Shown here: piece after piece, positions 18,728 to 60,520 of the stretch
How positions within the stretch are numbered: the stretch's first letter is position 1
How the letters are laid out: each line of letters begins with the position of its first letter
Origin: Raillietiella orientalis
Taxonomy: Eukaryota
DNA: 64,000 nt
Reading direction: 5' to 3'
Assembly (NCBI GenBank): GCA_036172245.1
Contig: JAYWIR010000032.1
Span: forward strand, 2,108,001 to 2,172,000
Program-made: the position numbers and the translations under genes
Notes under the pieces: generated by a model
The model's database searches: none
Told to the model about the DNA's origin: nothing
The model's input: only the letters and a program-made list of their open reading frames with translations

Positions 18728-21700
18728 TCACTCACGAATAATAATAGAGTTTGCTTCATCAGAACCTCCATCAATCTAATTCAGAAATATAAGTGATGGC
18801 ACATACTGACTGTAAAACCTATTACCTGTAATTCTAAACTAGAATCAACACCCAACTGAGAAAACTGGTCATCAGTAACATCTGTCAGAATCATCTGCCC
18901 ATCAGGCAAAACCAGAAGAACTTTCTTTTGGCCTAAAAAGATGTAAGAGAATACTTTTTTAAGTTCACCAACCTTCTTCAGTTGAAGCTTGCAATTCTTC
19001 AGAATTGACTACCAAGTTTGCCAGAGTGTTCAAGTCAATTGCCTGTTCTTCCCCCTCATGACCATCTTGTGTAGCAATGATAGTAGTGGTGCCATCTTGA
19101 TGAGTTGCAAGAGCAAGAGTCTGGGAATCTTGGGAAGCTTGTGCTGCAGCTGCTGCAAGAATACTTGCAGCCTGTTCAGCACTATCTTCTGACGTTAGAA
19201 TTACTTGTCCCGAACCATCGGTTACTCCATTCTGTGATGGCACATCATCCTGATTTCTAGATAAACTGATTGTGCGGCCTGTCATGGGACTTCTGGAGCC
19301 CATACTTTTAACTTGAAAGTGCGCTTTAGGATGAATTCTTCTCGGGCTCATTGGTTTTTTCTTAGTATTTGGGTCACTAACACTGGTAGAGAGTCGCACA
19401 CCTTGGTTTACAGTGGTGGTTTGAGTGGGTGCAGTATTTTTTGTTTGCAAAGTAAGTCCAGGCACACTTTCAACAGAATTAAGAGTCATTGTCAGGTGAT
19501 CCCCGCCATTGTCTTCAGATCCTTCTTCGATTTCTATTACTTTCATTTGACCCATTTCATCAATTTTAATCTCAACACTTTTCTCCTCGGGTGGTCTCCT
19601 GATAGCCACAGGCCATTTGATTTCACGTTTACTGATTGTATCCGTACTATTCATTTGTTCCACAGATTTTTTTGGCATCAGTCGATACTCGATTGTATAA
19701 CCATCTGCCATAGTTACTGGCACTAATTCCAAATAATCAGGAATGCGCTTAGGGGCATGGGGTACAGTTGAAAGGCGACGACCAAATAAAGGAATGTGTC
19801 CTCGACGTAAAAGTCCTGTGGTAGGTGGTCTCCCTCTCATACCTGTATACAAACGATAAGGCGATGGTGTAAAAGATGTATTATATTTTGGAGTTGTTCG
19901 GGGTGGTCTACCACGAGAACGTCCACGGGGTGGGGCAGGTACAACAGGGGTGACCACTGAAGCATTTTTAATAGAATCAGCAGATTCACTTTCAAGAACT
20001 GTTTTGTTTTCACCGCCAGGTGTAGAAAAAGGAGTAGAAGTTGTGGGCGTTGAATATGTCTTCCCTCTACTCCCTCTCCCTCTTGAGCCTCTCCCTCTCC
20101 CTCTCCCTCTCCCTCGGGGGACAGTTATCTCATAACTGGCTACACTGGATTCAAGATCCATTTTTTCTGATTCTGGTGTATATTCTGGAACAGCAACATC
20201 TGGAAGAACCACTTTCTTAATAGGACTGACTTCTGCTATCGGTAATTCTGTTGTCTTGGAAGCAGGATATACTGACTGTGGTAATGTAGGAACAGATGCA
20301 GGAAGTGGAGGAGGTAAGGGTGCACTTTCAGGAGGAGGAGGAGGAGGAGGAGGGAGTGGAGTAGTATTCACAACAGAGGACTTTGCAGAGGCAGCTTGAC
20401 GACCGTATTTTAGGTTGGCTAATGATTTATCTAATCCAGGTATCGGAGTAAGGACCACTTTAGCTTTTTTAATGGAAAGTCGTGCCATATAATTCGAATC
20501 AGTTTTATCAGCTTTCCGCTTAATGCCTACTGACATCCCTTCTGCAGCGTTCGAGGTATCAGCAACACGACCAGCACTAACACTTTTTGAACGAGCTTTC
20601 TCTTCAAAACCGGATTCAACAACTAGTTGATTTGATGTCCACTTTTTCATTAGTCCCAATGCTTTTTGCTTAGATGGCCTACACAAGATTTTAATTATCA
20701 GAGGCTCGTTTATTTTAATTACCTAGTTCCTGGTGATAGACTCATTTCAGGGGTCGATTCAGCTGTTAGTTCATCTTCATCCACCTCTAAAAATGCTTCA
20801 TCTGATTTGGCTAATTGCTTTTTGCGAGTCAAATTCCAGTTTTTTTCGAATTCAAACATTAAAGTGGGGCAGTCTAAATTATCCTGTGGTTCCCAAGTGT
20901 TTGCAGATCTATAGGAACAAACAACTTATCTCCAACAAACAATTTTCCTCACTCATTATATCCTTCCCATTTCAACAAATATTCGTACTTGTGAATTTTT
21001 GGATTATATCGTTTCGCTAGTATTTTTTCTACTTTGAAATGCCCTACTTCCCTTATGTCTTTTCTGACTTCTTGCAAACATGCTACAAAATACACAAGAT
21101 TACCCATGTTTTCCATGCAGAGATCACAATGCTTACTTTCCTCACTGATTGGGCCAGCGAAAGTGACTTCCTTGTGCCGCTGCAAGGTAATTATTATGCC
21201 AATCTTGTACATTAACACATCTGCATACCTTATCAGGATGCTGGAATTTACCAGTTTCTTGAAATTTGCGAGCAGAGTCAAACCACAAAGTTTTCCGCTT
21301 TGAGTTCAATTTATTCCACTGCATTTCAATATATTCATCTGACATTAGTTTGTCATTAGCTGTAAAAGAAAAAAAAAAAAAAAATGCAACCAGTTTTTTT
21401 TAAAATCTGAATGGAAACTGAATTACACATTCTCACACCACCATGAAAGCACACATTTTTGTATCATAACAGTTTGTTGAAATCTCACCTTTGCTTTTAA
21501 CAGACTTCATATACAAGGAAAATGCTAGCTCAGCCAAACCTGGAAACTGCTTTCTTGAATTGTAATTCAATGAAATTGATGGTTTATTTGTAATAGAATT
21601 AATGGATTTTAAAGTGTTATTCAAATTTGGGATCTGAGATACATCATCTTTGTTCTGGAAAGGATTGCACAATATTAAATTGTTCATCCAAATGTACTGA

Positions 21701-36305: not shown

Positions 36306-39300
36306 TCACATGGCAGCAGAACACTGTGCATCACTGCATTGTAAGTCCATATCATCCAACTTATCTAAATATGCAAATATACGGAAATGTAGTCTGGACT
36401 CCAGTGCGTAGTTATGATAATTGTCTCTAGCATGTTCCAATAACTTCCTTGCACTATCAAACTTCCCTCTGTCAATGTGAATTGTTGCTAATTCTACTAA
36501 AGAATATGGAATAAGATACAAGTCTTCCTGTGGTGGAGGATTCCTAGTTATTTGTTCCAAACAACTCTCTGCTTCATCTAAATTTCCCAACTGATGAAGA
36601 CATGCTCCACGAAGACATAGCACTAGACAGTTGGTATCCCAGTGAAACTCTTTGCTGTCTGATTGAATAGCTGGTTGACAATCATCAATTATCTGTAAAA
36701 AGGCACACAGCAAGTCACGATTGCGTGCCAAGTCACGATTGTGAGCCAAAATTCTAAAACAGTTCCACAAATACATAAATTCTAACAATGGCACAGGCAA
36801 TTCAACTCCTTTCATAGTATATCTTTGTGCTTTCCGCACTACAAATTTTTCCATTGGAATCGACTTCCCAGCTATACGTTGTTTCCATTGACATACATTC
36901 CTAATACATCTGTAAATTTCAAGCAATGCAGACATTCATAAGTTCTTACTCCATAAGCTCGAATATTTCATGATATTTTAATGAAGCATCGTTCATTGTC
37001 AGCAAAATACATGCCTTTAAATAGGCATAAATGGAACGAGACCATGAACTTCGCTCCAGAAGCAAATCTGCGAAAACCAAGGCTTTTTCCCATTGCATCT
37101 GCAGGCTGCCAACAAGCTTGTGTCATGTGTATTAAACACAGCCTTGTGACTTACAGATGGCACCACATAAGCTCCCAAAAGCAGATGTGATGGAACTGCT
37201 TCCATTCCTCTTGCACTTGCCAAGAAGCTACTTGAAAGTGAATAGCTCTATCAAAATTTCCGCAAATCAAGTGATAACGTCCAATGAAAAAGAGTGTCAA
37301 AACTCCTTTGGGATATTTCTGAAAGAAGTTTGTGATTCTGTAACCAAAACGAAATTATGCTTACTGAATTTAGAAATGAAACTATTTTATGGCACAGGTT
37401 GAAATCTGGGTCGCAGCAACCATAGAGAACAAGAGCTATAGTTTGATAGAAAAGTAATACCATCCCACAAAGTATCTGCCGAAGACTTCCTTGAAGCTCG
37501 AATCCTTTAATCAGCTGTTTCATTGCGATTTTCTGCATAAAAAATCAGATGGATGGGTCTTGAACCTAGCAATGACTCACCCTGGATGCCTATATAACAA
37601 AGGGAACAAAAAAAAAAAAATAAATAAACGGAGCCATGTAATTATGACCTGGAAAATGAATACAACAGCGTACCTTCCTTCCTGCAAAACCTATAATTTC
37701 TAGTAGCTTCAGAATCCTAGGAGGGAGTAAGGATATCAGCTGGAACATTAAAGTTATAATCTTATTGAAATCAAGAGGTATTTAAATGTGAAAAATATCT
37801 CACCAAATGAAATGTGCCCACTCCAAGATTTACACCACTTTCAAAATGTACTCTGCTTTTTTTATTATTCCATACTGCTTTTTGTTTAGATACAATAGCA
37901 CACTCCCTACAAGAACTCCTTCTGTTGTATGTCAATAACTTACTTATAAGATGAAAAACAAGATTTGATGCACATGCCACCTTTAACAAAGCTTTTAAAA
38001 GTTTCATCTTCCATGAATGTGATCAGTGCCTTCATCAACAGAGATTCAGCATAACACAACTCTGCATGCACTTCACCTAAAATCAACAAAATATAGACAA
38101 TTTTATAATGAATTCGTTATACATATAATTCACTGAATGACAGCACACAAGCAACATTTCAAGATTCAGACTTTGAATATACGGTGTTTTTTAACTCACT
38201 ATCAGTATACAAATCATAATTTGGTCTTCTCAGCCAATTTCCAATATTTTCTGTGACAGTCTTTTTCCTTCGGAAGCTATTGCATACTTGTACGGAATTA
38301 CTTATGAGTTCACAACCGTATTCGATATCTTTCTAAGATACAGCTTCAGTAGACTGAAATTAATATATTACCAAATCAAATGTCATCATGGCCTGTAGAA
38401 ATGACATAGTGCCGCAACCAAGTGCATGATACATGCTGGTCTTGTTCCTGAAAAACCAAAAACAATGTTGTAGCGGTAAAGGTGGCTCTTAATTTGGGAA
38501 TTCATAATGATAGTCAACAAAGATGATTCCTTCAAGGCATCAAAATTCATTCCAAAAGCTAAAAATTCGAATAATTATTTCATTAAGACATTCAGAAATA
38601 TCTATTCCCTAAGAAAAATAAAAGAATGTACAGATGTTTAAATAACTCCTGAGAAACTGTCAATAAATAAATGCATATAAGTACACAAACTTTTACAATT
38701 TTTTTAGTTTTGTTCTTTTATCAAAACAAATTCGAGGTTTCCACTGAGATGCTTGAAAACAAAATAACTTCAAATACTTGAAACTACAGTTTCCTTTCAT
38801 TTTTCGTTTTACTTTCTTTGTTACTATGCCAGTTTATTTACATTCCTTTTTTTTCTTTGTTTCATATTATTCACAATTGTGGATCAGGAATACTATGCAC
38901 ATTCTGTGCCAGGGCAAGTACAGTTTGTTTACAGTGAAATAATTCGCTGAATTTGGCTATTGGAGCTATGACTGAATTTAAGGAAGAATGATGGTTACAT
39001 GTGCTTTGTATTGACCTGTCTCCATGCTCCCTTATTTCTCCCAAAATTCCATTTCTTCAATACTATATCACAGGTTTGAACAGATTTAAAACTTTGTAAT
39101 CTCTCAATTCAAGAAATATCGTTTCTTTTCACTATTCATTTAATTCATTTCCAATCAACATGTGCTAATGATGATTTCTCTACAACTCAAAGCTGGTTTC
39201 TTTTGTCAAATGATCACCAAGAATATTTCAACATCTACTGAAAAAAAGACCTATAGGCATATGGAAGAAAGTTTAAATTTAGCAGCAGAATAGCTTAAAA

Positions 39301-46399: not shown

Positions 46400-48469
46400 A
46401 TGTCGGACACTTGGAATGATATTCAGGCCTTCAAAATAAAACAACTGAGTCTGAAGGAACGATTGCAAACGAGGAAAAAAAAGAGAGAATGTTTCCTAAA
46501 TTCAGCAAACACCTTGAGTGGTAGGCAAAAGAACTCTTGACAAACTATCCACTATGCTATCCACTATGTGAAATTCTTAATTTTTGTGTATATTTTAGAA
46601 GTACCAAGTAATCTCAAAACTGAAAAAGAAAGCAACAGAACCATAATTGAACAAGGTAGTTCTTAATTTGTTGTAGAACATTGCATGCTTGGATGACATA
46701 GTTGAGGATCATTTGCATTTTGGGTTGTTTTTTCAGAAATATTATGTCATCATCACACAAATGTAGAAGTAGAAAAGCAGCTTCTCCAGTGTTTGTGTGA
46801 TGCGTTGTTGATTTTGCCTACAGATTCGCATGTTCTCACTAAAGCTGTTTCACAGTGTTTAACAGAAAATGTCCCCCATATAGTGGTCGAAAACTTGTTG
46901 CAAAAATTTGCAGCCCAGACTCTGATAAGGTAAGTTAAGCCATTGGTGTACTTGTTATTTACTACTATCAGTTATTGGATAGCATTGAGGAAAGCAGTTT
47001 ACCTGACGGTAAACCTTCCATCACAGTTGTGGCAACTGAGCATGCTCGTCTAACTGCAGTGGCACATGATCTAAATACTTCTCTTAGTAGTGATGGTACA
47101 GATTTTCCAAAAAGACAGCGCATTGATGACAGCAAATCGGAATTTTATAAAAGCTTACAAAGTAAAGAAGAAAAACTTCCAAATAAAGATGAGGATATTT
47201 TGGTAGTCAGATAATGTGAATATATTAACATTACATACTTAATATACATACCAGAGCCTTCTTGCTATGCCTACCATCAAGGAAAAGGAAAACAAGAAAG
47301 TTGGAGAGGAAATTTTGGAGCTTCTTAGTAAGCCAACTGCCAAAGAAGTATCCATGACTGAGCGTTTCAAGTCTCAGAGTACACATGTGAAAGAGTTCTG
47401 TTCCTATGGCACTAGAAGTGAATGTGATCAGAGTCGGACAGAAAAGATTTGCCATAAACTGCATTTTAGGAAAATCATTCAAAAGCATACAGATGAAAGT
47501 TTGGGAGATTGCTCATTTCTCAACACGTGTTTCCATATGGATACTTGCAAGTGAGTTTTTTTTTATTTGCTTGACAGAAGGTCACAGTCCTGTAGGTATG
47601 TCCATTATGAGGTTGATGCTAGTGGTATAGATTCATGCAAACAGATAACTAATAAAAAAGACAAAGATATCCCTCGAACTCCCCTTAGTCAGGATATTAC
47701 TGTCCTCATCAAACCACAGTGGATCCAGTGTGATCTTAGATATTTTGATATGACCATTTTAGGTAATTTCACTTTATTAATAAATACATATAAAACCCAT
47801 AAAGGAAAGTTTGCTGTGGTTATGGCTGATCCACCATGGGATATTCATATGGAGCTTCCATATGGTACCATGTCTGATGATGAAATGCGTGCTCTCAATG
47901 TGCCATGCCTTCAGGATGAAGGCCTTATTTTTCTGTGGGTCACTGGCAGGTATGTACATCACCAGAAACATGGTATTATTGAGTTTGTAGAGCTATGGAA
48001 CTGGGAAGAGAGTGCCTTATTTTATGGGGCTACCAAAGAGTGGATGAGCTCATCTGGGTTAAAACAAATCAGTTGCAGCGTATAATTCGAACTGGACGTA
48101 CAGGTCACTGGTTGAATCATGGTAAAGAGCACTGTCTGGTTAGTAGATGCTGATACTGAGATTTAAAACTTAAATTTATAGGTAGGCATGAAGGGCAATC
48201 CAAATACAATGAATCGAGGTCTTGACTGTGATGTGCTGGTGGCTGAGGTTCGAGCAACCAGCCATAAACCTGATGAGATTTATGGGATCATTGAACGATT
48301 GTCTCCAGGAACACGCAAAATTGAACTGTTTGGTAGAGAACATAATGTCCAGCCTAACTGGATTACACTGGGAAATCAGTTACCTGGAGTCCAACTTCTG
48401 GATCCTGAGTTAGCAAAAGCATTTAAGGCACGTTACCCTGAGGGAACAGCCATGATGAAGCAAAACTAG
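46400..48469 (+). CDS. METTL3: N6-adenosine-methyltransferase catalytic subunit (m6A writer, MT-A70/Ime4)
   Basis: N-terminus [27 protein letters not shown] fingers (EFC...[34 protein letters not shown]); catalytic [69 protein letters not shown]. About 9 exons with short introns. Confidence 0.97.
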
Positions 48470-49361: not shown

Positions 49362-50204
49362 CTTTTGCATTGACTATCAAATCCTATTACTGACCGTGGA
49401 GGGCCATGCAGTAACTCCGTTTGTCCTTTCGAAAATTGCCAAATACGAATCTTGCCGAAACCTGTGCTCCTTTCGAACAATCGGGGAAGATGGGATTCAC
49501 GATCTGATCTCGAGATGCGTCGCACACGCACACACGGCAACAGGACGGGAGGAGCACAGCCGTGTTGGATGCTCAGCTGTCCGTTCCTGCGCTGTAAACA
49601 TTCCGTTTCGCACAGCTCTTCCACCCGTAGGCAAAAATAAGGTGCCAAGTGATGCAGATAAATACGGCGCCGGTGCACACACAAAGCTCTTTTACTCGCT
49701 ATAAAAACAAAACAGACATCTATGAACTTGGAACTTCCAAGAAGGCCCAAACACGTGCACAACGACACTGTATGAACGCCAGTGGCAAGGTGGCTTTTTT
49801 TTTTCTTCTTCTAAGAGTTCCATCTATTTGAACTGCTCAGCAATTAGGAAGCATTCAGAAGCATCACAAAGTGTAAGAAAGATACGGACGCAATTTTTTC
49901 CTAGAGATTCGTAGAGATTTTGCAAAATGAACCACTTGCTCCAGGATGCGACTGTTACACACAAACACACAATTTGAATGAATTTCGTAAAGTAGTTTTA
50001 AGGTGAAGTACAACGTGAGATACTACCTAAAATGCGTGCTCATTTAAAAGTAGGAAAAGTATGACATTTTCATCGTCTCAAGTAAGAGTTCAGTGGTTGC
50101 CTCGTTTTCACCAAAGCCGGGTTAGTAATTCTGTTTTCAATTTCTTTTCTGATTAGTAACACGCTTTCCTATACAATTTCAGCCTCACAAGATTTCAATT
50201 ACGT

Positions 50205-50970
50205 CTGTAGCGCCAAGATCACCACCAACTTGCAATTTGGATCACGAGCCGGCTGAAAAATGCTGCGACCTCAAGTGTTCCACCGAATGGACTATTGGCC
50301 GGGGAGAGCTGCTGGGAATCCTTCTTTAAGACCTCGAGTGGCCCTCAATGCTGAAGAATAACCAGACGTCCCCTGAAGTGGCAAGAGTAGGCATTTCTGG
50401 TGTTGCACTGGGGTCTCCCCAACAACGCCCGCCGATCTCACTGGACTCGGGGGATCTGTGGACCCAAACTGCTCCATATGCGGGGAACGGGAATCACTCC
50501 CGCACCTCTTAGTTGACTGTGTTGCCCTCCGGCCCCTTTGGGAACGTTTCGGTACGACCCTAGGGATCGTGGAAGGTAGCCCTCCTAGAGACGTTTTTCG
50601 GCTTTTCTTCGTGCGGGACGCCCTGCAGCCAGTCGCTGTCGTAGCAGCGTTCAGCTGCATCCGCGGTATCATGGCAGCTTGGAGTGAATCCGACGAAGCA
50701 GAAGATGTCGGCATCCTGCAAAGGATGGAAACTCCACGCAGCGGACAGTGATCCCTTCCCGGTCCTCCAAAGAACTATGGTTTTTTGTGTTTTCAGTTTC
50801 CTGTATTTTTTGTTTTTGTTTTCCCCATCCCCCTCCGCTGACGTGGAGTGTCAAGTCGGTCTGTGCACCGACAAGCCGGCAGCTCCCTATGTTTTATTGG
50901 CCGCAGAGGGGCCTTGTACCACAAATACCGAAAGTTTTTTAATAAACGCCCCGGCTTGACCGGGTGAAAA
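50205..50970 (+). mobile_element. Fragment A: 5'-truncated LINE 3' end (ORF2 C-terminal Cys/His domain plus 3' UTR)
   Basis: DPNCSICGERESLPHLLVDC motif; homologous to 55420-56334; ends AATAAA-cgccccggcttgaccgggtg at 50941-50966. Confidence 0.88.
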
Positions 50971-53292
50971 TGTCGAAACAAACATTTCGCACCGCCCCCG
51001 CCACCCTGCCCCGGACAAGGAATGCTACTCCGCGGGTATTCTGGGAGCCTGACCTCCAATGGAGTGTCCCTCCTGCGCGAACTGCCAGATCGACCGCTTG
51101 CTGTTCGGAGAGTGCGTGAATCTCCTGCAGCAGGGTCAGATCGAAGTCGCGCAAGACGTTAGCTACCAATCGCCTCTTCTCGTTGTCCTGCAGCCCGTTG
51201 ACGTTCCAACAGGCCACTCGGACGCGACGAGAAGATGCGAGTCCGCGCATTGCTGCTATGGACATGGAGGTGCGTTCCTCGCCCCGTCCGGCGAGTCATC
51301 AGCCGGGAGCACGGCGGATGTGGGAGCGGAAGGGCTCCCTGTCTCGGCCGCGCCGCTCGCGGCTGGCTCGGTGGAGTCGAGGACCATTGCCTCGGGCTCC
51401 GAGGAGCATCGGGAACCGTTCCCGGCATCAGGCTCTTGCCTGGCAAGTTTCGGCTTGCGCGCAGCCCTGACCTTGACCGGGGCTTGGGGAGCCTTAGCGC
51501 TGCCCTCGGACTCCACCTCGGAGTCCGAATTCCGCGCGCGCGGCGGGCGTTTCGCCTGCCTCTTCTTCTGCTGGCAGCTCGGAGCTGACCCAGCATTCTT
51601 GGAGAGCGCCTTCGGCGCCGTTCCCCCTTTCGGAGTCGCGGCGTCGGCAGCTGCCCTCTCGCCGCAGGTGTTTGCGACGGCGCGCGCGGCGGCAGCGGAG
51701 GCTTTTTCTTGCGCCTTCCTTGGCGCGCGGGGCTGCCTCTTAACCCCGCCTACCTTAATAATTGGAAAGTGCGAAGGATCGCGCGGTTAGCGCTCCTTCT
51801 TCCTTCCCCCAACGGAGGTCCAGCCAACCTCGTCGCCCTCGGGTTTGCCTCGGTTCGGCGCGAGGGCTTCCAGGGTCCTTCGCATCCTCTCCAAGGCCTC
51901 CGATGCGGCGATGGCGGTCTGTGCGTCCGTCGCCACGTCTGCCTTTTGCACCTCCTTACCGGAAGGTGCGGACAGAGTGACAGGATTCTTGGAGGTCGCA
52001 CGAGGCTTTTCAGCCTTTGCCGCTGATCGACTCGCCGTGGCCGGCTTGCCTTTCGCGGGCAAAGGGGCGCGCGACCCCTTTTTCGTTGCTCCGGTGGACT
52101 TCTCGGGCGTGCCACCGCTATTTCTCTCTGGAGCGAGAGCGGACGGAAGCGGCGCTTTTGCAGTCTGCCCGATGTTTTTTTCAGACTGCTTCGCTTGGGG
52201 CTTGTTTGTAGCAGCTTGGAGAAGCTTTTTGTCCTTTCGCGCGGGCTTTTGGGGAGCATTGCTCCGAGAATCGCCCGCGCAAGCGGACTTTTCACTTCTC
52301 CGCTGAGAATGCTCGTTCGCGCCTGATTTCTTCCCCGACGACGGGGCGGATGGAGTCGGCGCGGACGGCGATGTTGCGGGGAGGTTTCTCGCCCTCCTCT
52401 TTCGTTTCAGCTCGGCGCACTCGTTAATCGAGTGGCCGAGCAGTTTGCAGTATCGGCAACTGCGTGTTGGGCACTTCCGCGGACGGTGGCCCTCCTTCCC
52501 GCAGTTGTTGCAAGCAGGGGTTTGCCCGGCAAACCGGAGATAGACGACGACGTCACCGAGGAGGATCTGCGAAGGCATGAGCCTCCGGTCGTCCATGGTG
52601 ACGCGCGCCGTCGCGAGTCCGCAAGAGAGGCGCGCGACTTTATGGATCGGATTCGCACGCCCATACATCGCGTGCACTGTGGCGAACGCCTCGAGTGCAA
52701 CAATGATGTCGCGGTCCGTTATTCTCGGCCGAATGCCCGAGAGCTGGACCACGAACGATTGGTCCAGGGCCGAGGGGACGACCTCCTTACCCCTGATTTT
52801 CAGGGGGGTTCGCAGTAGGCGCTGGACGAGGGCTGCATTTTTGCAGTGCACCTCCCAATGACCTACCGCGCTCACCGGCATTAATGCCAGGAGATCGTCC
52901 TCTCGGACCTCGACGCGTTCCAGTTCGCTCCAGAGCTGGTCTCCCGTCCCATCCCGGTAGGCGGCACTGACCTTGCAGGCCAGAGGGGGATTGTAGCCGT
53001 TTGCGGCGTACGCCCGTAGCTCTGCCTCGTCCGGTGGGGCTCCGTGAGCCGCCGCTGCCTTAGCAACGGCGGCAAAACTTCTCGCTGGAGGCGAGGGACG
53101 ATCGGTGGAGGCTTTCACTCCTTCCGAAGAAGGTCCTGCAGCGCAGGGGGGTTCCTCCACCTCCATGCAAGCAGTTGTTGGCTTTATTTTCATTCGAAAA
53201 TTGCACACCACACCCAAAAGGAACAGCCGCAAAAAACACCAAAGACGGAGCGCAAGAATGCACGTCCGAACAATAAGGAGGGCGGCTATTTG
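50967..53292 (-). mobile_element. Fragment B: LINE 5' UTR, complete ORF1 and start of ORF2 endonuclease, truncated at the junction with A
   Basis: ORF1 with two CCHC knuckles; ORF2 from ATG 51265 has WNVNGL, LLQEIH, RGVAFL and breaks after NVCFD. Confidence 0.9.
51256..53232 (-). pseudogene. Tx1-like ORF1 (gag-like nucleic-acid-binding protein with 2 CCHC zinc knuckles and a long basic low-complexity tail), interrupted by one in-frame TAA at 51787-51789
   Basis: CNNCGKEGHRPRKC and CRYCKLLGHSINEC. The frame stays open after the TAA down to 51256, overlapping the ORF2 ATG at 51265. Confidence 0.85.
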
Positions 53293-53737
53293 TCACCCGG
53301 GTGCGCCAAAGCGTTTATTAAAAACTATCCGGGAACAGAGTTCCCGGACAAAGGAAACACAAGAGACGAAGGGGATGGGATCCCCGACACGCAGGTCGGT
53401 AAACGGAAAGTCCGGAACGGGAGGGAGGGGACCACAAATACACTACTATAAAAAATAAAAATATGGAGGGCAGAGGACAGGGGTCTTTGCTTCCGCCGTT
53501 CCTTCCTTTCAGAACCGGCGATGGATGCCGGCGAACTCTCTCCTCACGCTCTCTGGTAGGTGGGCCGACGACATGCTTGCGCTGGCTAATCCTCAGGGCT
53601 GACGAAGGATGGCCAGCTTCTTCAACTCTCGGTGGGCCTTGTCGATGGCGCGGGTGCAACACACGGTTGCAACGACAGCACCCAAAGACAGGCCACCTGG
53701 CGTGAAGAAGCGGCGCATCAAGTCTCTCGCGGTGTCC
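53291..53737 (-). mobile_element. Fragment B': divergent LINE 3' end lying head-to-tail immediately upstream of B
   Basis: Minus-strand translation ARDLMRRFFTPGGLSLGAVVATVCCTRAI aligns to PRDVFRLFFVRDALQPVAVVAAFSCIRGI of fragment A; ends AATAAA-cgctttggcgcacccgggtg (53319-53294). Confidence 0.82.
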
Positions 53738-56337
53738 CCCTGGTGCAGGAGAGCTGAGGTCAGCCTCAGGGAGTAGGTTGTATTGGCGATGCGGGTACAT
53801 CAACACCTGCGGTGTCGCGTTCTTCCTAAAGCCAGCCGTCCACGCCTCCGTGAGGAACGTACGCTTCGATGACAACGGTCGTGTTGGACAGATGATTCTA
53901 TGCTGGTCCGACACGATCGATCTCATCGTTACCAAAGTGTAAGCTCCGAGCGGTAGCAAAGGGTACGCGGAAAGAACTCAGTTCTTCCAGTACCTGAAGC
54001 GCGACTGGCTGACAGATGCAGGATTGCGCAAGGCCCACCTGATAGCCGGGGACTTTAACCTCCGCCTGCTCTCAGGTGCGTGCTGCACGCAAAAGAACGT
54101 GTCGATCGAGTTGTGCTCCGCCATGCGCGCGCGCAACTTGATGGAGGGACACTCGGAAATGGAGGACAGCATCGACCACGTTTTCCTCGACCACGACCTG
54201 TGTACTCGATTCGGTAAACGAGGAAGGCTCCCGTTGACGCTGTCCGACCATTTCCGTCTGATGTTCGATGTCTGGCCACGCGATAAGGGACCCCCATCTA
54301 GGGCGTGGCGCCTACCGGGGGATTGGACGAGGCTCTTAGGTGCGGCGGATCATCTCCGCCAATTCCTCAGAGGCGTCACCCTCCGGAATCTCGAGGATTG
54401 GGACGTTTTCAAGCGTTCGGTCCGCGAGTTCTATGAGGAGTTTCCCCTGGGGCGCCTTCCCTCTGTCGGCATAGGCTGCTACGGTGCAGCCCCCGTAGCA
54501 GCCTATGCCGACGATCTTCTGCTCTTGTTGCCGATGTCCACCCCGGCAGCGGCAGTCGGAGATTTCTTCGACCTGCTTCGCTGCGGGACCGGACTGCAGG
54601 TGAACAGGGCGAAGTCGTCGGTGGTGCCAGTTGGTGCGGCGTGGGCAGGGCAGCAGGACTGGGTTTGTTTAGGGATCCCCACAGCGAGGTGCCTCAAGTA
54701 CCTTGGTGTGCCGTTGGGGGATTATTACCCTGAGGAATCGCGGTCCAGCTGCCTCCAAAAGGTTGAGACGGCGATCGGCCCGTTCCTGGAAGGCAAGTTT
54801 CACTTGCCGGAACGGGCCGCGGTTTGGAACGCCTTCGCGGCCCCCATCCTCCGCCCCTTGCTTTTCGTTTGCCCCGCCCCCGTTGAAGTGAAGAAGAGGA
54901 CGAAGCACCTCCTCCGTATCGCCCTTTGGAGCAAGGGGAGGCCCCGAGTCCCTTTGAAGGACTTGTGCGCTCCGCGTCGGGACGGTGGTCTTGGCCTCCT
55001 GACGCTGGAGCGCTTGGAAATTCAGCTGCGATGGCGCACCCTTGCCATCGCAGCAAAGATGTGGAGCACCCCTTGGTGCGTTCCGGCTCGCCTCCTTGCC
55101 AGTCGTGTGTCCCGATGCGAAGGACTCGCGTCTTTTCTTCTGTGCTCCGGTCGGAAGATCCGAAGATGCGGCCTACTGCTCGGGTGCATGGCAACCCTGG
55201 CGAAGGAGAACAGCTGGATGGTTTATAGCCCCGCCAACTCCTCCGCCTGGCTGAAGGAGACTGCTGACACCTGGGCTAAGCTAAACCAGAGGAGTGAAGA
55301 CCCCATGAATTGCCTGCGTGCCGGCCCATACACTGCCGCACCATGAGGGAAATACTTGAATTTCCCGCGGGTTGCACGTGGGCAGAGACGACCCCCCTTG
55401 CTACGCCGATGCCCTACCTCCGGAGGGCGCTTGTCGGCAGCCAGAAGCCGAGGTGGCAAGTCTCCTGCCGAATCGCAGGCAGGGAGAAGATGTTAAGCGG
55501 CTGGACCATAGGAGAACTGGCGGACGTCACGACCCCGAGCGTCCAGCCGAGAGCACTTTTGCGATGGGGCGAGCTGCTCGCAATCCCCATGGATGTGCTG
55601 AAGTAGCCCCCGGTGTTGTTTGAATCAAGGATCCTGCCCCTTAAGTGGCAAGAATCGGCGCTGCTACTGTTGCATGGGGGTTTACCCTGCAACGCACGCC
55701 GCTTCCACTGGACAAGGGGAGCGGTGGATCCTCACTGTGCCAGGTGCGGAGAGCGGGAATCGCTCTCCCACCTACTTGTTGACTGTGCTGCCCTCCGTCC
55801 CCTCTGGGAACGGTTCGGCACGACCCTCGGTCTCCCTGTGGGCAGCCAACCCAGCGACGTTCTCCGTCTTCTCTTCGTTCGGGACGCCCTTCAGCCAGCT
55901 GCAGCCGTGGCAGCACTCTGCTGTATTGGAGGCATCGTGGCGGCCTGGAGCGATACCAGCGAGGAGGGAGTGGATTCAAACGCGATGGCTGTCATCCCAT
56001 ATGCTGTTCGCTTCCTGCGGAGAGCTATTGGATGGCCCCAGATGAGAAGATTGAAGATGGACCTCGAGGGTATCCTGATAAGGATGGACCCTCCTCAAAG
56101 TGGACCGTGATTGCTTCCCTTCCCTCCAAAAACTCTTTTTTTTTTTTTCTTTGTTTTCTGGTTTATTTTTCTTTTTTTTTTTTAACCCCCCATCCCCTTC
56201 CACTGCCGAGGAGAGTCACATCGGGCTGCGTCCCGGCAGGTCCGGCATTACGTGGCCGTTAGTGGGGCCTTGTACCACATACTGTAATGACGAGTGAAAC
56301 GTTTTTTTAATAAACGTCCCGGAGTACCCGGGTGGCA
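53738..56337 (+). mobile_element. Fragment C: LINE ORF2 (APE endonuclease fused to RT C-terminal half and Cys/His domain) plus 3' UTR; internally deleted and disrupted
   Basis: LVQE, GDFN, IDH and SDH endonuclease motifs; AYADD, GLQVNRAKS, KYLGVP and GGLGL RT motifs; CARCGERESLSHLLVDC; ends AATAAA-cgtcccggagtacccgggtg (56309-56334). Confidence 0.92.
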
Positions 56338-57720
56338 TCGCCGTAACCTGGAGGGAGACGGTTCAGGGGAAACTGGTCGCAGAACTCGCGGACTGAGCTC
56401 TTCAAGTCGTCCCAGTCCGCGAGCGACTGCAGATGGAAGCCTTGCAGGAACGAGCGAAGATGTTGCGCTGCTCCTGCGAGGCGCACCCAGTCCCCTGGCA
56501 AACGCCACGCTGTGGAGGGTGGACCTCTACCGCGCGGGTGTATTTCTACCACGAGCCGGGGATGGTCGGAAAGTTCGGATGGCACTGCCCCTCGATTTCC
56601 CACCCGCGAACACAGGTGGTTGTCGAGGAACATGTGGTCGATCCTCGTCTCCGTCCCGGCGTCACCGGCCAACAAGTTGCGCGCGTGCATGGCAGCGCAC
56701 ATCTCGTTGACCAGCTGTGCGCGAATGTCGGGCGCACCTGCCAGCAGGCGGACGTTAAAGTCCCCGGCAATGAGGTGCGCCTTTCGCATGTCTGCTTCGG
56801 CCAGCCAATCTCGCCGCAGGCCTTCGAAGAACGCAGTGCGTTCCCCGCGCCTGTGGCTCGTGCCGGGCGCGTACACGTTGGTCACGACGAGGTCGATCGC
56901 GTCGGACCACTTGGCAACAAGCTGCCCGATTTGACCTTCCCCGTCGAAGTGCACGTCGCGCAGCGCATTAACGACGGCTGGCTTCAGCATGAAAGCCACA
57001 CCGCGATTGCGGTCTCTCCCGTTTTGGTATACGAGCCGCCCGCCTGCGATTCGTTCGATTTCCTGGGCCTCCTCTGCGTGGAGCACGTGCGTCTCCTGCA
57101 GAAGCGCCAGGTCGAAGTCCCGCAGGCTGGCGGCCACTTCTCTCCTCTTGCCGTCGTCGCGCAACCCGTTGACGTTCCAACAGATTACGCGCAGTCGCCG
57201 GCAGGAGGAGAGTCCACGCGTTGGTGTGTTTATTGTGCTTGCTTACCGTCCTCCGCCTGCTGTTCAGCAGGCGGGAGTTGTGTATCCATTGCGACGGGCT
57301 GTTGCTCGCAAGGAGGCGGTCCGTCGGTGGTTGTGGTGGTGGTTGGAGGATCCTGCTTGGCCAGGGACGTCTCCGGCGAGGAGTCGCGAGACCTCGCGGA
57401 CATCGCCTCCCCGTCGTCGTGGTCCGACCGCATTTCCTCCTCCGCCGGTGGAGGTGCGGAGCGCCGCGGGTTGCCTACCTTGCGGCCCGCTTTGCGCTTC
57501 GGGAGAGCGACAGCCGGAGCGTTGCCGGCTTCGGCTTCGGACTCGGAAGTCTCCGGTCCTTTCGCCTCAGCCGGACGCCTCAAGGCCTTCTTCTGGGCCT
57601 TGGGAGGCTGCTGGAGCATGGCTGCCAACTCTTCCGCCGCCTTGTTGAAGTCCCGGTCGTCGCTGCTCAAGCTGGGCTCGCGACTTTGTCGCGGCGTCGG
57701 CGTTCGCGCGGCGGCAGGTT
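56338..57720 (-). mobile_element. Fragment D: LINE ORF1 C-terminus plus intact-looking APE endonuclease domain of ORF2
   Basis: WNVNGL, LLQETH, RGVAF, NVYAP, AGDFN, RIDH and SDH in one open frame; ORF1 tail ends at 57230. Confidence 0.9.
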
Positions 57721-58372
57721 GACACCCGGATATGCCGGGGCATTTATTTATGGAAATAAAAATATAAGGAATTGTCGCGTGGCCACTCCAAAACAGCTTG
57801 CAGGTTGCCGGCGCTATGCCGGTGAGGTCCTTCCGATGCGCGGGGGTTGGGAAAGAAAAACAAAAACAAAAAGTTCGAACGTGGGAGGGAACAAGTGTTT
57901 CAGGGGTGGGAGGGCGGAGAAGGGATCACTTTGCGCGTGGAGAGGTCCTCTAGATCCTTTTGAGGATCCTCACAAGCTGCGTCCTATCCGCGCCCAAATG
58001 GCGCCACTTGCACACGCTTCGCACGAAAATGCGAGTCCAATACAAGGCGTTGCCGGTTGGCTGACGCCTTCTTCTGGTGGCGTTCCAAGCCGCCACGATC
58101 CCACGAATGCAGCAGAGGACTGCCACACAAGCGGACGGGGACAAGGCGTCACGAGAGAAGAGGCGCCTGAAAACGTCCTTAGGGCCGCATCCACGCAAGT
58201 CCAAAATCGCCGCAAGACGGTCCCAGAGAGGGCGGAGGGCACTGCACTCAATCAGAAGGTGGGGGAATGTCTCTTTTTCCCCGCGCCTGGGGAGAGAACC
58301 TCGCCGGTCTAAGGACCGGGTATCGATTATATTGCAGCGTGGGAGAACCCAGTGTTCCCCCACAGAAAACAT
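57721..58372 (-). mobile_element. Fragment E: LINE 3' end (Cys/His domain plus 3' UTR), head-to-tail upstream of D
   Basis: GEKETFPHLLIEC...LCCIRGIVAAW; ends AATAAA-tgccccggcatatccgggtg (57748-57723). Confidence 0.88.
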
Positions 58373-58379
58373 TTCTTAA

Positions 58380-59575
58380 AGACTTTATTATCTAATTTTT
58401 GTAACAAATTAGAATAATAAATGCCCCGGCATATCCGGGTGGCAAACGGCGGAAGCAATTGTTGTGCGCTCCGGGGATAGGGAGTTTTTCTTTTCTGGTG
58501 TTTCGTGTGTGGTTCGCGGCCGTTTACGGGCAGAAATGCCTGTGAACGCCGCAGTTTCAGGTGAGGGAGGCGGGAAGACCGCGTCTCCCAAGCCAAAGGA
58601 GGTATGATCACGCCCCACCACTACTTCTGCACCTTCCCCCGCCACTACGGCGAGGGCCTGGAGCGCGGTGGCAGCGGCGGAAACGCCCGATGTTGCCGCC
58701 GAAATCCAATCCTACATCCAGGAGGGCTACAATCCGGCCCTCCTGTACAAGGTAGGAAATTTATATTCCCCGTTAAGGGCGCGAAAGTTCGGCAATGCCA
58801 TTAAAAAGATGGGCATTGCCGACCATGAAATTCTTTGCCTGTCAATACGAGCGGAGGGCAGTTGGCGGAGCTCATCTGCAAGGATGCAGCTCTTACCCAC
58901 AAAATGCTTTGTACGCCCGTACAATTTGAGGGCAGGAATTTACTCCCCCACACGGTGGACCACTCCATTGTGGTTCACCTTACTGGGACAACAGTGCGGA
59001 TGGATGAAAATGCCATCCGCACTTAGCTTCAAAAATTCGCAAGCGTTTCCGCGATGTGGCGAAAGCCCAACGCCTTCGCTGTAATTTCCATCCGGGTAAT
59101 CCCGGGGCGTTTATTAAAAAACATTCCACAAACATGGTACCAGGCCCCACTAACGGCCACACAACGCCGGACCTGCCGGGACGCAGCCCGGCGTGGCTCT
59201 CCTCGGCAGTGGAAGGGATGGGGGAGAAAACAAAAAGAAAAATAAAAAGGAAAACAAAAAGTAGTTGGAGGGCTGGGAAGGGATCACTGTGCACTGGGAG
59301 GAGGGCCCATCCTTCGAAGGAAGCCCTTTAAGTCCGTTTACATCTTCGTCGCGGGTATCACTCCACGCCGCCACGATGGCACGGATGCAGCCTTCGGTGT
59401 AAATAAGGCGTTTAGTGGGCGAGTAGGCGCTCGCCTGACGCTGCGAGAAAGCGTGCAGCTTCCCCACAAGCTCCAAATCGGCGACGAGTTCGTCGACATT
59501 TGGTTCGTGGGGAAGCCCAAATTTTGTGGGAACTGTAAGACGTTCGGGCACCTGAAAAAGCGGTGCCCGGACGCA
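58380..59575 (+). mobile_element. Fragment G: short 3' tip (AATAAA plus hairpin), then 5' UTR and frameshifted ORF1 up to the first CCHC knuckle; interrupted by fragment F
   Basis: EIQSYIQEGYNPALLYKV matches ELRAYAANGYNPPLACKV of B. After F the frame resumes VNKAFSGRVGARLTL...FCGNCKTFGHLKKRCPD. Confidence 0.87.
59085..59389 (-). mobile_element. Fragment F: ~300-bp 5'-truncated LINE 3' end inserted into ORF1 of G with a 13-bp target-site duplication
   Basis: Flanks gccttcgctgtaa (59072-59084) and gccttcggtgtaa (59390-59402); 3' UTR closely similar to fragment C. Confidence 0.88.
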
Positions 59576-59610
59576 GTTTGCCTTTTACTTAATCAAGCAC
59601 CCCTTGCTAC

Positions 59611-60520
59611 TTAAACGCGATTCTCTGAAATCCTTAGAATGTATCTGAAGCCGATGAAGACATTCATTGCATTCATTTGCATCGCCTTTTTGATAATAAT
59701 GATCAACTGCTCAAGTGCAAAAAACATCTCTGAAACATAAGTTTGTACACCATAGTGCAGCACATGAAATGTAGCAAATGCCAAATGATCCTCTGCATCT
59801 TTTGGAGTAGCAGGTCTTTGATTTATAATACGATACAAGTTACCAGGTAGAATTCCTCCTGACTGAATAGCATTCCTTAACTGATCTAACATGCCGCCTG
59901 ATCTTTCAAGTTCAGCAACACGTACATATGATGAAAGTTCTTTTACAATATCTACATTTTTCACTAAATCATCCATAAAGGTAGCTAAGCTTGATGTTCT
60001 CTTCTACTTGCAACTTATTGATACTGTCAAGAACACGTTCAAAACCTTGATGCATTTCAATCCTCGTTCCTTTTATAACTGATAAAATCTTACCATTTTC
60101 AAAAATTGCACTTATTACCACAAAGTTTGTATCCACTTTATTTCTGACCTCTTCAATGGCAGCATAGTTTTTTTGGTATAGAGAAAAGGTTTTGACAACT
60201 TAAAGGTCAACTTTCTCAAAGGTTTTATATTGTTCATGCGGAAGTATGCCAAATTCTTCTGGTGTATCTTCAACTCCAAGACCATGCCTTCATTGTCTAT
60301 AACTCTGTCTTTGTTTTCCGCTTCCTTCAAGTAAGCTTCAGACCATCAACTTCGTGGATAACGTTCATACCTCTGAGCAACTTCATTTACCGTGTTTGTC
60401 TCTAATACATCCATGCCTCCCCTAGAATCGATCTGCTTTGTATTAGATTGTAAAGGTTGGATATCAAAATCTTTTGTAGCCATATCCTTAATTTGACCTA
60501 CACCCACTTTATCCGGGCTT
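59611..60520 (-). pseudogene. Disrupted intronless coding remnant of unknown origin
   Basis: Protein-like segments (SPDKVGVGQIKDM..., LKEAENKDRVIDNEGMVLEL..., MDDLVKNVDIVKELSSYVRVAELERSGGMLDQLRNAIQ...) linked by stops and frameshifts; no family recognised. Confidence 0.4.

Follow-up and report, generated by a model that had tools for sequence, protein, structure and literature searches.

A conserved motif of AATAAA and an inverted repeat ends the copies of an L1-like retrotransposon in a GC-rich island of Raillietiella orientalis

Results

A GC-rich island with six copies of a terminal motif

The stretch analyzed here, called the window throughout, comprises 64,000 nucleotides (nt) from Raillietiella orientalis (assembly GCA_036172245.1, contig JAYWIR010000032.1, positions 2,108,001 to 2,172,000 of the forward strand). 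It is eukaryotic, AT-rich DNA with an overall GC content of 33%. A GC-rich island at about 50.2-59.6 kb (50200-59578; 9.4 kb) contains 60% GC overall and 51-61% in 2-kb bins, compared with 31-42% across the 2-kb bins outside. All recognisable pieces of the island are nested or abutting fragments of a single L1-like family of retrotransposons without long terminal repeats (non-LTR), and no copy of this family was found in the other 54 kb of the window by similarity comparison or with a covariance model. Within the island lie six copies of a motif consisting of AATAAA and a short inverted repeat. The evidence described below supports that these motifs are the true 3' ends of the non-LTR retrotransposon. 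They are designated by the element copy which they close or, in the case of a bare motif, as X (UTR, untranslated region; TSD, target-site duplication):

50941..50970, +, motif of copy A: AATAAA, CCCGG-CTTGA-CCGGG, TG, AAAA; the 3'UTR before it is homologous to those of C and H
53290..53319, -, motif of copy B: arm TTTGG, loop CGCAC; ACAAA separates it from the 5' end of copy D
56309..56337, +, motif of copy C: loop AGTAC; followed by GCA
57720..57748, -, motif of copy E: loop CATAT; TCAA separates it from the 5'-truncated copy F
58416..58446, +, bare motif X: loop CATAT, no recognisable 3'UTR before it; followed by GCAAA and then the 5' end of copy G
59087..59115, -, motif of copy H: stem shifted by one base, loop ATTA; ends with GGATGGA directly at the TSD

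A pattern search with AATAAA-YGCCCCGG-N5-CCGGRTG-N(C/A)A returned six matches at 50941, 53319 (-), 56309, 57748 (-), 58416 and 59115 (-), with a chance expectation of 0.03, and at least six matches occurred in 0 of 100 shuffles. Using a covariance model built from the six copies, with filters off, the same six were recovered from the 64-kb window at E below 1e-6; no seventh copy was present in the window, the next best match having E = 0.55. Both methods thus reproduced exactly the six motifs listed in an initial annotation of this DNA. The sequence AATAAA is invariant in all copies, at a distance of 23-26 nt from the end in the alignment, and a T run precedes it in four of six. It is followed by a Y-G-(C/T) step, and TG closes the side of the 3' arm before the final N(C/A)A. 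The 5' arm reads CCCGG in five copies and TTTGG in the 53.3-kb copy (B), and the 3' arm reads CCGGG in five copies and CCGGA in the 59.1-kb copy (H). Five different loops occur (CTTGA, CGCAC, AGTAC, CATAT in two copies, and GATTAC), in agreement with the earlier description of a kept stem with a variable loop. The motifs at 57.7 kb (E) and 58.4 kb (X) are identical, and 97% identical over 29 nt; therefore, at most five independent sequences are available. The six matches are homologous copies of the end of a single element and not six independent occurrences.

Conservation of the terminus

To the terminal 29 nt, which are non-coding, all 15 pairwise comparisons assign identities of 0.68-0.97, whereas the 60 nt upstream of the terminus show identities of 0.41-0.66 (shuffled sequences: mean 0.49, maximum 0.64). 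Homologous pieces of the copies are 68-80% identical at the nucleotide level. For the endonuclease encoded by open reading frame 2 (ORF2), the proportion of synonymous differences (pS) between lineages was 0.53-0.67 and the ratio of nonsynonymous to synonymous divergence (dN/dS) 0.26-0.36, over 173 and 91 codons. Since pS is near saturation and dN/dS is about 0.3, the lineages diverged under selection and are not recent duplicates. Taken together, the comparisons show that the non-coding motif is under constraint and better preserved than any other part of the 3' region. A contrast of this kind led to an L1 lineage being called 'stringent' (Ohshima 2012).

A motif scan of metagenomes returned ten loci, all in unrelated GC-rich contexts of bacterial appearance, seven of them with a common flank and none with LINE (long interspersed nuclear element) flanks. 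The corresponding scan of viral contigs gave no match. Protein-guided scans produced 13 pattern matches in viral contigs and 62 in contigs of prokaryote genomes, with no confirmed relative among them.

Element ends, tails and target-site duplications

In five of the six copies the motif closes a recognisable ORF2 C-terminus with a 3'UTR, which is clear in A, C and H, partial in E and weak in B. Copy H is flanked by a TSD of 15 nt, GCCTTCGCTGTAATT (59072-59086) and GCCTTCGGTGTAAAT (59390-59404), which match at 13 of 15 positions. Read on the strand of H, the TSD begins directly after ...CCCGGATGGA, 2-4 nt past the stem, so that at most two terminal A residues are present. The ORF1 of the older copy G, which is interrupted by H, resumes past the second TSD copy and continues through a CCHC knuckle (frame 1). 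Because the TSD starts right after the motif, the end of H is real and has no poly(A) tail. The initial annotation had used this TSD, assigned there to a copy F, to fix the true end of the element, and its conclusion holds.

The tail of all six DNA copies consists of N(C/A)A and 0-3 further A residues in the alignment, where the run of A directly behind N(C/A) measures 1-3 nt in each copy. None exceeds four A residues, as had been claimed (1-4 A), a shortness that is a property of the DNA copies. A poly(A) tail is usual for the L1 clade, but not universal, and none of the six copies carries one.

Copy A has a possible weak TSD of 8-9 nt with an indel, TGAAAAATG (50254-50262) and TGAAAATG (50965-50972), exactly at both ends; in the windows searched, chance alone should yield about one word of this size, and only the position favours it. 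At the junctions of B, C2 and E no shared word of at least 6 nt was found, and none was found for the island as a whole. The search at the ends of C yielded two 6-mers only, both away from the ends.

The 3'UTRs additionally contain a T/C tract about 120-170 nt upstream of AATAAA, at 50790-50830 (A), 56140-56185 (C), 57852-57874 (-; E) and 59223-59262 (-; H). A similar pyrimidine tract lies ahead of the tail of L1-1_CR, as far as supplementary file 3 of Ohshima 2012 covers it.

Composition of the island and its element family

The island is a partly rearranged nest of the following copies and fragments (RT, reverse transcriptase):

50263..50970, +, copy A: 5'-truncated ORF2 C-terminus with CCHC zinc motif, and 3'UTR (frame 2)
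50971..53289, -, copy D: full-length 5' end, 5'UTR, ORF1, spacer and the first ~95 amino acids of the endonuclease; cut at the 3' side where the end of A abuts
53294..53808, -, copy B: 5'-truncated divergent ORF2 C-terminus and 3'UTR; weak homology, recognised by eye from translations
53809..54464, +, fragment C1: C-terminal half of the endonuclease and linker, ends with FPLGRLPS; 69% inverted match to 57004-56364
54465..54512, no strand, inverted repeat at the C1/C2 joint: perfect over 20 nt with an 8-nt spacer; the right arm encodes the RT motif around YADD
54493..56337, +, fragment C2: RT from YADD, thumb, CCHC (zf-RVT-like), 3'UTR and terminal motif
56338..57719, -, copy F: 5'-truncated (end of the ORF1 region), complete endonuclease; ends with FPLNRLPP where the end of C2 abuts
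57720..58365, -, copy E: 5'-truncated degenerate ORF2 C-terminus and 3'UTR
58366..58415, no strand, AT-rich spacer: 50 nt with 16% GC between the 5' break of E and motif X
58447..59086, +, copy G part 1: full-length 5' end, 5'UTR and degenerate N-terminal part of ORF1
59087..59389, -, copy H: 5'-truncated insertion of 303 nt inside G, flanked by the 15-nt TSD
59390..59578, +, copy G part 2: continuation of ORF1 up to and including the first CCHC knuckle, with an abrupt break to AT-rich DNA behind it

Copies A, E and G are degenerate and contain stop codons. The 50-nt spacer at 58366-58415 resembles the 3'UTR of no copy and has no match elsewhere in the window. A continuation of D to the left of A was considered and is unsupported (local scores 24-29).

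The family encodes an ORF1 with 481 open codons and two CCHC knuckles (copy D, 51787-53232, -). At the N-terminus of ORF2 an APE-type endonuclease was detected (Exo_endo_phos, E 1.9e-11, 44.6 bits, cut-off 24.5), for which all nine matches in a PDB search were L1 endonuclease entries. The RT is present from the YADD motif onward and is followed by a Cys-His motif. At the C-terminus, zf-RVT scored 24.1 bits, which is below the cut-off of 27.5; the pattern C-x2-C-x7-H-x4-C is visible in the translations of C and A. When a 467-amino-acid piece of ORF2 was compared with 1.84 billion representative proteins, 40 matches at E <= 1e-3 and a single one at E <= 1e-10 were obtained. The sole close relative, P0001, is 63% identical to the ORF2 piece of C2 over residues 161-458. 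The RT class was judged on P0001 by similarity scores, which were E 7e-40 to 5e-39 against human L1 ORF2 protein (ORF2p) and 7e-17 to 1.5e-11 against R2-type proteins. A homologue search with longer proteins found nothing. From these sequence comparisons the family is classified as L1-like and scarce in public data. The contrast with the long poly(A) of mammalian L1 drawn in the initial annotation is apt because the RT is L1-like; specific tails in the L1 clade were already in print (Ohshima 2012).

A single public DNA run (X1), which shares 12% of words, was compared with 49800-59800 and yielded 379 contigs at >= 80% identity: 9 at >=99%, 28 at 95-99%, 96 at 90-95% and 246 below 90%. By these matches, the family is multi-copy there; an RNA run was not among the runs listed as sharing words. 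One X1 contig of 293 nt spans the E/F joint with 5 differences.

Some features of the fragments are recorded here in their own right. In copy D, Pfam detects only the CCHC knuckle of ORF1, below the cut-off, and the N-terminal two thirds are without a family. The left arm of the inverted repeat at 54465-54512 is the reverse complement of the right arm, the reading frame is open across it, and the repeat looks like a snap-back or template-switch scar. C1 (+, 53809-54464) and F (-, 56338-57004) are 69% identical inverted copies of one ORF2 stretch and flank C2. Their ends fall at nearly the same ORF2 position (within about 15 nt), which is hardly a coincidence and for which our analysis offers no explanation. 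The LGRLP stretch of C1 shows no significant resemblance to the P0001 RT (E = 8.6); C and F may have an internal deletion in common.

Junctions between the copies

All six motifs adjoin another fragment of the family within 3-5 nt, three on the same and three on the opposite strand. The opposite-strand joints connect a tail with an element interior: A abuts D at about endonuclease residue 95, C2 abuts F just past FPLNRLPP, and H lies in the ORF1 of G. The same-strand joints B/D, E/F and X/G are head-to-tail, E/F without intervening DNA. Such head-to-tail joints may have arisen by template jumps to the 3' end of a second RNA, by double insertion, or from a motif present at both ends of the unit. 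Known double-insertion dimers carry a TSD between the units; none was recognised between the head-to-tail units of the island, unlike in R1 and P-element dimers (McGurk and Barbash 2018). D and G provide the only full-length 5' ends of the window, and both align from the first base past the CAAA of the motif. That the motif stands directly upstream of both had been overlooked in the initial annotation, as had the contact of each motif with a further family fragment.

Pairing potential of the inverted repeat

The arms can form a stem of 5-7 bp, and they are kept between lineages while the loops vary. Of 42 pair cells, 41 are standard pairs, compared with 29-55% when the partners are slid by +/-1 to 3 columns. 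All six of the proposed hairpins were found as matches, with two reservations: the two motifs of E and X are identical, and the 59.1-kb copy has lost the outer pair (G to A) and gained an inner G-C pair, so that its stem is shifted by one base (CCGGG/CCCGG, 4-nt loop). The claim that the change from CCC to TTT in the 53.3-kb copy preserves G-U pairing is right on paper, and only for the sense-strand RNA, but the fold of this copy is no better than that of shuffled sequences (-5.2 kcal/mol, z +0.82). Rfam returned no relevant family at E <= 1 over 49800-59900, UnaL2 included, and only two unrelated weak matches. The data are compatible with an RNA structure and do not amount to proof of one. 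The three alignable 3'UTRs suggested that an upstream GGGGC pairs at long range with the 5' arm; this pairing was dropped, as it concerned 3 sequences only and was absent from B, E and X.

Discussion

A proposed stringent-type 3' terminus

We consider it somewhat better than an even bet (roughly 0.55) that an L1-like LINE with tail recognition of the stringent type has its functional 3' terminus in the motif, and that its reverse transcription starts at the end of the RNA body. The AAUAAA would cause the 3' end to be formed at a CA or AA dinucleotide some 21-24 nt further downstream, and the space between AAUAAA and the end would be filled by a short GC-rich hairpin with a core of 5 bp, extendable by G-U and Y-G pairs, and a loop of 4-5 nt. 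From the ends, the missing tails and the conservation observed in the DNA we infer that this RNA may fold and may be bound by the ORF2p of the element itself, with the conserved stem serving general recognition and the lineage-specific loop serving discrimination between lineages. With the RT positioned by this binding, the cDNA would begin on the final bases of the RNA body or on one of the first one to three A residues behind it. Genomic copies would then end with the hairpin, N(C/A)A and 0-3 A residues, and not with long poly(A). New copies would insert into older members of the family, as H did into G, through ordinary target-primed reverse transcription.

Several results weigh against this proposal. 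The motif directly precedes both of the full-length 5' ends, once (G) without any 3'UTR, which counts against it because a purely 3'-terminal role does not predict such a position. Two-sided changes occur in 0 of 7 pairs and four pairs vary on one side only (C-G to U-G), and 500 of 500 shuffles reach the observed values of pairing and covariation, a test whose power is very low with five independent sequences. The fold energies of -5.2 to -14.7 kcal/mol are ordinary (z +0.82 to -1.88), and 9 to 159 of 200 shuffles match them. What is conserved in the arms is the sequence itself, so that a sequence-specific signal fits equally well as a structure-specific one. A partner SINE (short interspersed nuclear element) with this tail was not found in the 64-kb window, and all copies studied come from this one window, with DNA as the only evidence. 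Of the terminal RNA structure proposed initially, the kept arms and variable loops stand, as in stringent tails, whereas the missing two-sided changes and the ordinary fold energies lend the folding of the RNA no support. The covariance model recommended as a check, run here on the 64-kb window, recovered the six copies; the covariation in their alignment did not exceed that of shuffles.

Alternative explanations

The motif may be only a self-contained signal for 3'-end formation, whose AAUAAA, structured spacer and GU-rich 3' arm would act in processing or termination, as parts that a mobile element has to bring along, and would not be read by ORF2p. The short tails would then result from priming that uses only the first A residues pairing with T at the nick. 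The invariant AATAAA with the T run before it in four of six copies, the end at a canonical distance and at a CA/AA dinucleotide, and a possible microhomology at the junction of A, which is T-rich on the primer strand, all fit this explanation, and conservation says nothing of which machinery reads the motif. On the other hand, a hairpin that fills the whole spacer between AAUAAA and the cleavage site is, to our knowledge, not usual at poly(A) sites. The lineage-specific loops with kept arms fit discrimination by a protein better. Furthermore, elements of the relaxed type, which are primed on poly(A), normally leave tails of varying and in many cases considerable length, unlike the six copies with their four A residues at most; L1-1_CR and SINEX-3_CR have 11 or more A in the sequences of supplementary file 3 of Ohshima 2012. 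We regard a pure processing signal as unlikely, though worth serious attention.

A second explanation assigns the motif to the 5' as well as the 3' end of the full-length RNA or unit, either as a promoter at the upstream terminus (a HeT-A-like 3' promoter or R-like redundancy) or through regular jumps of the RT from a 5' end to a hairpin-marked 3' end, and the head-to-tail joints are part of the life cycle. Both full-length 5' ends (D and G) start at a homologous base right past a motif on the same strand, the motif ahead of G stands alone behind 50 nt of DNA with 16% GC and no 3'UTR, the third same-strand joint, E/F, has no intervening DNA, and the 5'UTRs are only about 95-125 nt long. This association rests on two 5' ends, however, and the 11-12 nt that come first past CAAA, which are not the same in D as in G, could be target DNA. 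B, ahead of D, is a 5'-truncated copy of 500 nt, for which a template jump or a double insertion fits as well; double-insertion dimers are common in other elements (McGurk and Barbash 2018). An AAUAAA near the 5' end of the RNA would also need suppression. We therefore hold this explanation to be quite improbable.

The proposal of a stringent 3' terminus may be combined with a role at the 5' side. In such a two-ended module the AAUAAA-hairpin would mark the RNA 3' end for the RT and in addition serve as a landing site for end-to-end template jumps or as an upstream leader or promoter tag, which we judge to be distinctly unlikely, if slightly less so than a motif belonging to both ends of the unit. 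If true, full-length units would be made and kept as head-to-tail joints with the module ahead of the 5'UTR, and an LTR-like or HeT-A-like logic in an L1 lineage would drive self-nesting into GC-rich islands of an AT-rich genome.

A third, very doubtful explanation is that the inverted repeat CCCGG-N5-CCGGG works at the DNA level, where the element endonuclease or a host factor would target it or use it for recombination. It would explain why each motif abuts another element fragment (six of six within 3-5 nt, three on each relative strand), and the near-palindromic arms read alike on both strands (four copies were found on both). However, no motif is interrupted, the TSD of H marks an insertion into an unrelated ORF1 site, and the three opposite-strand targets (the middle of ORF1, endonuclease residue ~95 and a position before YADD) have no common sequence. 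In addition, the TTTGG variant pairs only as sense-strand RNA, and AATAAA and the fixed distance to the end would be without a role.

That ordinary poly(A) tails were lost by decay or rearrangement of the island, with the hairpin reflecting recent common ancestry only, is scarcely credible: several copies are degenerate (A, E and G) and deletions and breaks occur at both island borders, but the TSD of H starts directly past the motif, all six tails are short and keep N(C/A)A, in most pairs the adjacent 3'UTRs are no more alike than expected by chance although the motif is preserved, and near-saturated synonymous divergence separates the lineages.

Comparison with known systems

The terminal feature is real and very likely functional as a 3' terminus, and features of its kind are already known, the L1 clade included. 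Among stringent tails of the L2 clade, those of eel UnaL2 and zebrafish ZfL2-1 and ZfL2-2 likewise have a short stem-loop near the 3' end with a kept stem and a lineage-variable loop. In ZfL2, the ORF2 region between endonuclease and RT binds the stem-loop; a conserved part reads the stem generally and a variable part the loop specifically (Hayashi 2014). The kept arms and lineage-specific loops of the island resemble this bipartite recognition, as an analogy and not as a test. The island family differs from UnaL2 and ZfL2 in its L1-like RT and endonuclease, i.e. in clade, in having no terminal short tandem repeats, and in the position of the hairpin between AATAAA and the end.

L1-clade LINEs with conserved 3'-end hairpins are documented by LINE1-1_ZM of monocots and L1-1_CR (ZeppL-1_cRei) of Chlamydomonas, with a divergence of 0.144 over the last 45 nt versus 0.570 overall (Ohshima 2012). 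Like the island family they combine an L1-type ORF2 with a hairpin-capable 3' end that is conserved far above the rest. Unlike it, they end in poly(A), and their tails have no AATAAA-hairpin of the island type in the sequences of supplementary file 3 (Ohshima 2012). Compensatory changes and partner SINEs, reported for them in the same study, were found neither one nor the other in the window. In flowering plants, 9 of the 233 listed L1-clade families have no 3' repeat, and in green algae this holds for 5 of 15 (Ohshima 2012, Table 1).

The green-algal L1 elements Zepp and Zepp-like are GC-rich, insert into themselves and form local GC peaks; Zepp has 61% GC and nested clusters of 1.5-42 kb (Blanc 2012). 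The island behaves likewise, with H inserted in G with a TSD and all six ends on family DNA, a likeness in nesting and GC content. In Table 1 of Ohshima 2012, Zepp appears with (A)n ends, unlike the island copies, and the host DNA of the window is AT-rich (33% GC) with copies in both orientations. In SART1 (R1 clade), a 3'UTR structure is needed for retrotransposition and for the exact start of the cDNA, as summarised in Ohshima 2012. This element belongs to another clade than the island family, is specific for telomere repeats and ends in a required poly(A).

The three head-to-tail joints of the island share their same-strand 3'-to-5' arrangement with the HeT-A/TART arrays of Drosophila, R1 tandems produced by double insertion and template-jump chimeras, from which the island differs in that it has no uniform orientation and is not a chromosome end. 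The 3' stem-loop of histone mRNA resembles the motif in that the end lies a few nt past a short stem-loop with no A tail. It differs in its stem and loop sequences and in the AATAAA, which all six island copies have; this and the absence of an Rfam match (E <= 1) rule against a histone-type 3' end. The downstream element of histone-type processing would lie outside a mobile element.

L1-type elements usually serve as the model of relaxed, poly(A)-primed retrotransposition, and with the island family the few stringent elements of the L1 clade gain a clean natural example. With its conserved arms and lineage-specific loops it provides a ready system for the discrimination of self RNA by an L1-type ORF2p, and the island is compact material for studying self-targeted nesting and the joining of 3' to 5' ends. 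The association with 5' ends is the part most worth a genome-wide follow-up. If the family is confined to such islands, a parallel to the centromere-associated Zepp-type clusters of green algae would exist in a very different genomic background.

Island borders and flanking sequence

Both borders of the island cut element interiors, and neither is a junction of target-primed reverse transcription: the left border lies at about 50200, and at the right border G ends inside ORF1 at 59578. Possible reasons for the presence of the island in an AT-rich locus are self-targeting, a horizontally acquired foreign origin or an assembly join. The bin 49800-50133 was not covered by any X1 contig, which proves nothing. 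Outside the island, an ORF of 573 codons at 18965-20686 (-) has no Pfam match, and host exons at 36306-36935 (-) and 47567-48085 (+) encode parts of a TTC39/Iml2-type TPR protein and of an MT-A70 family methyltransferase.

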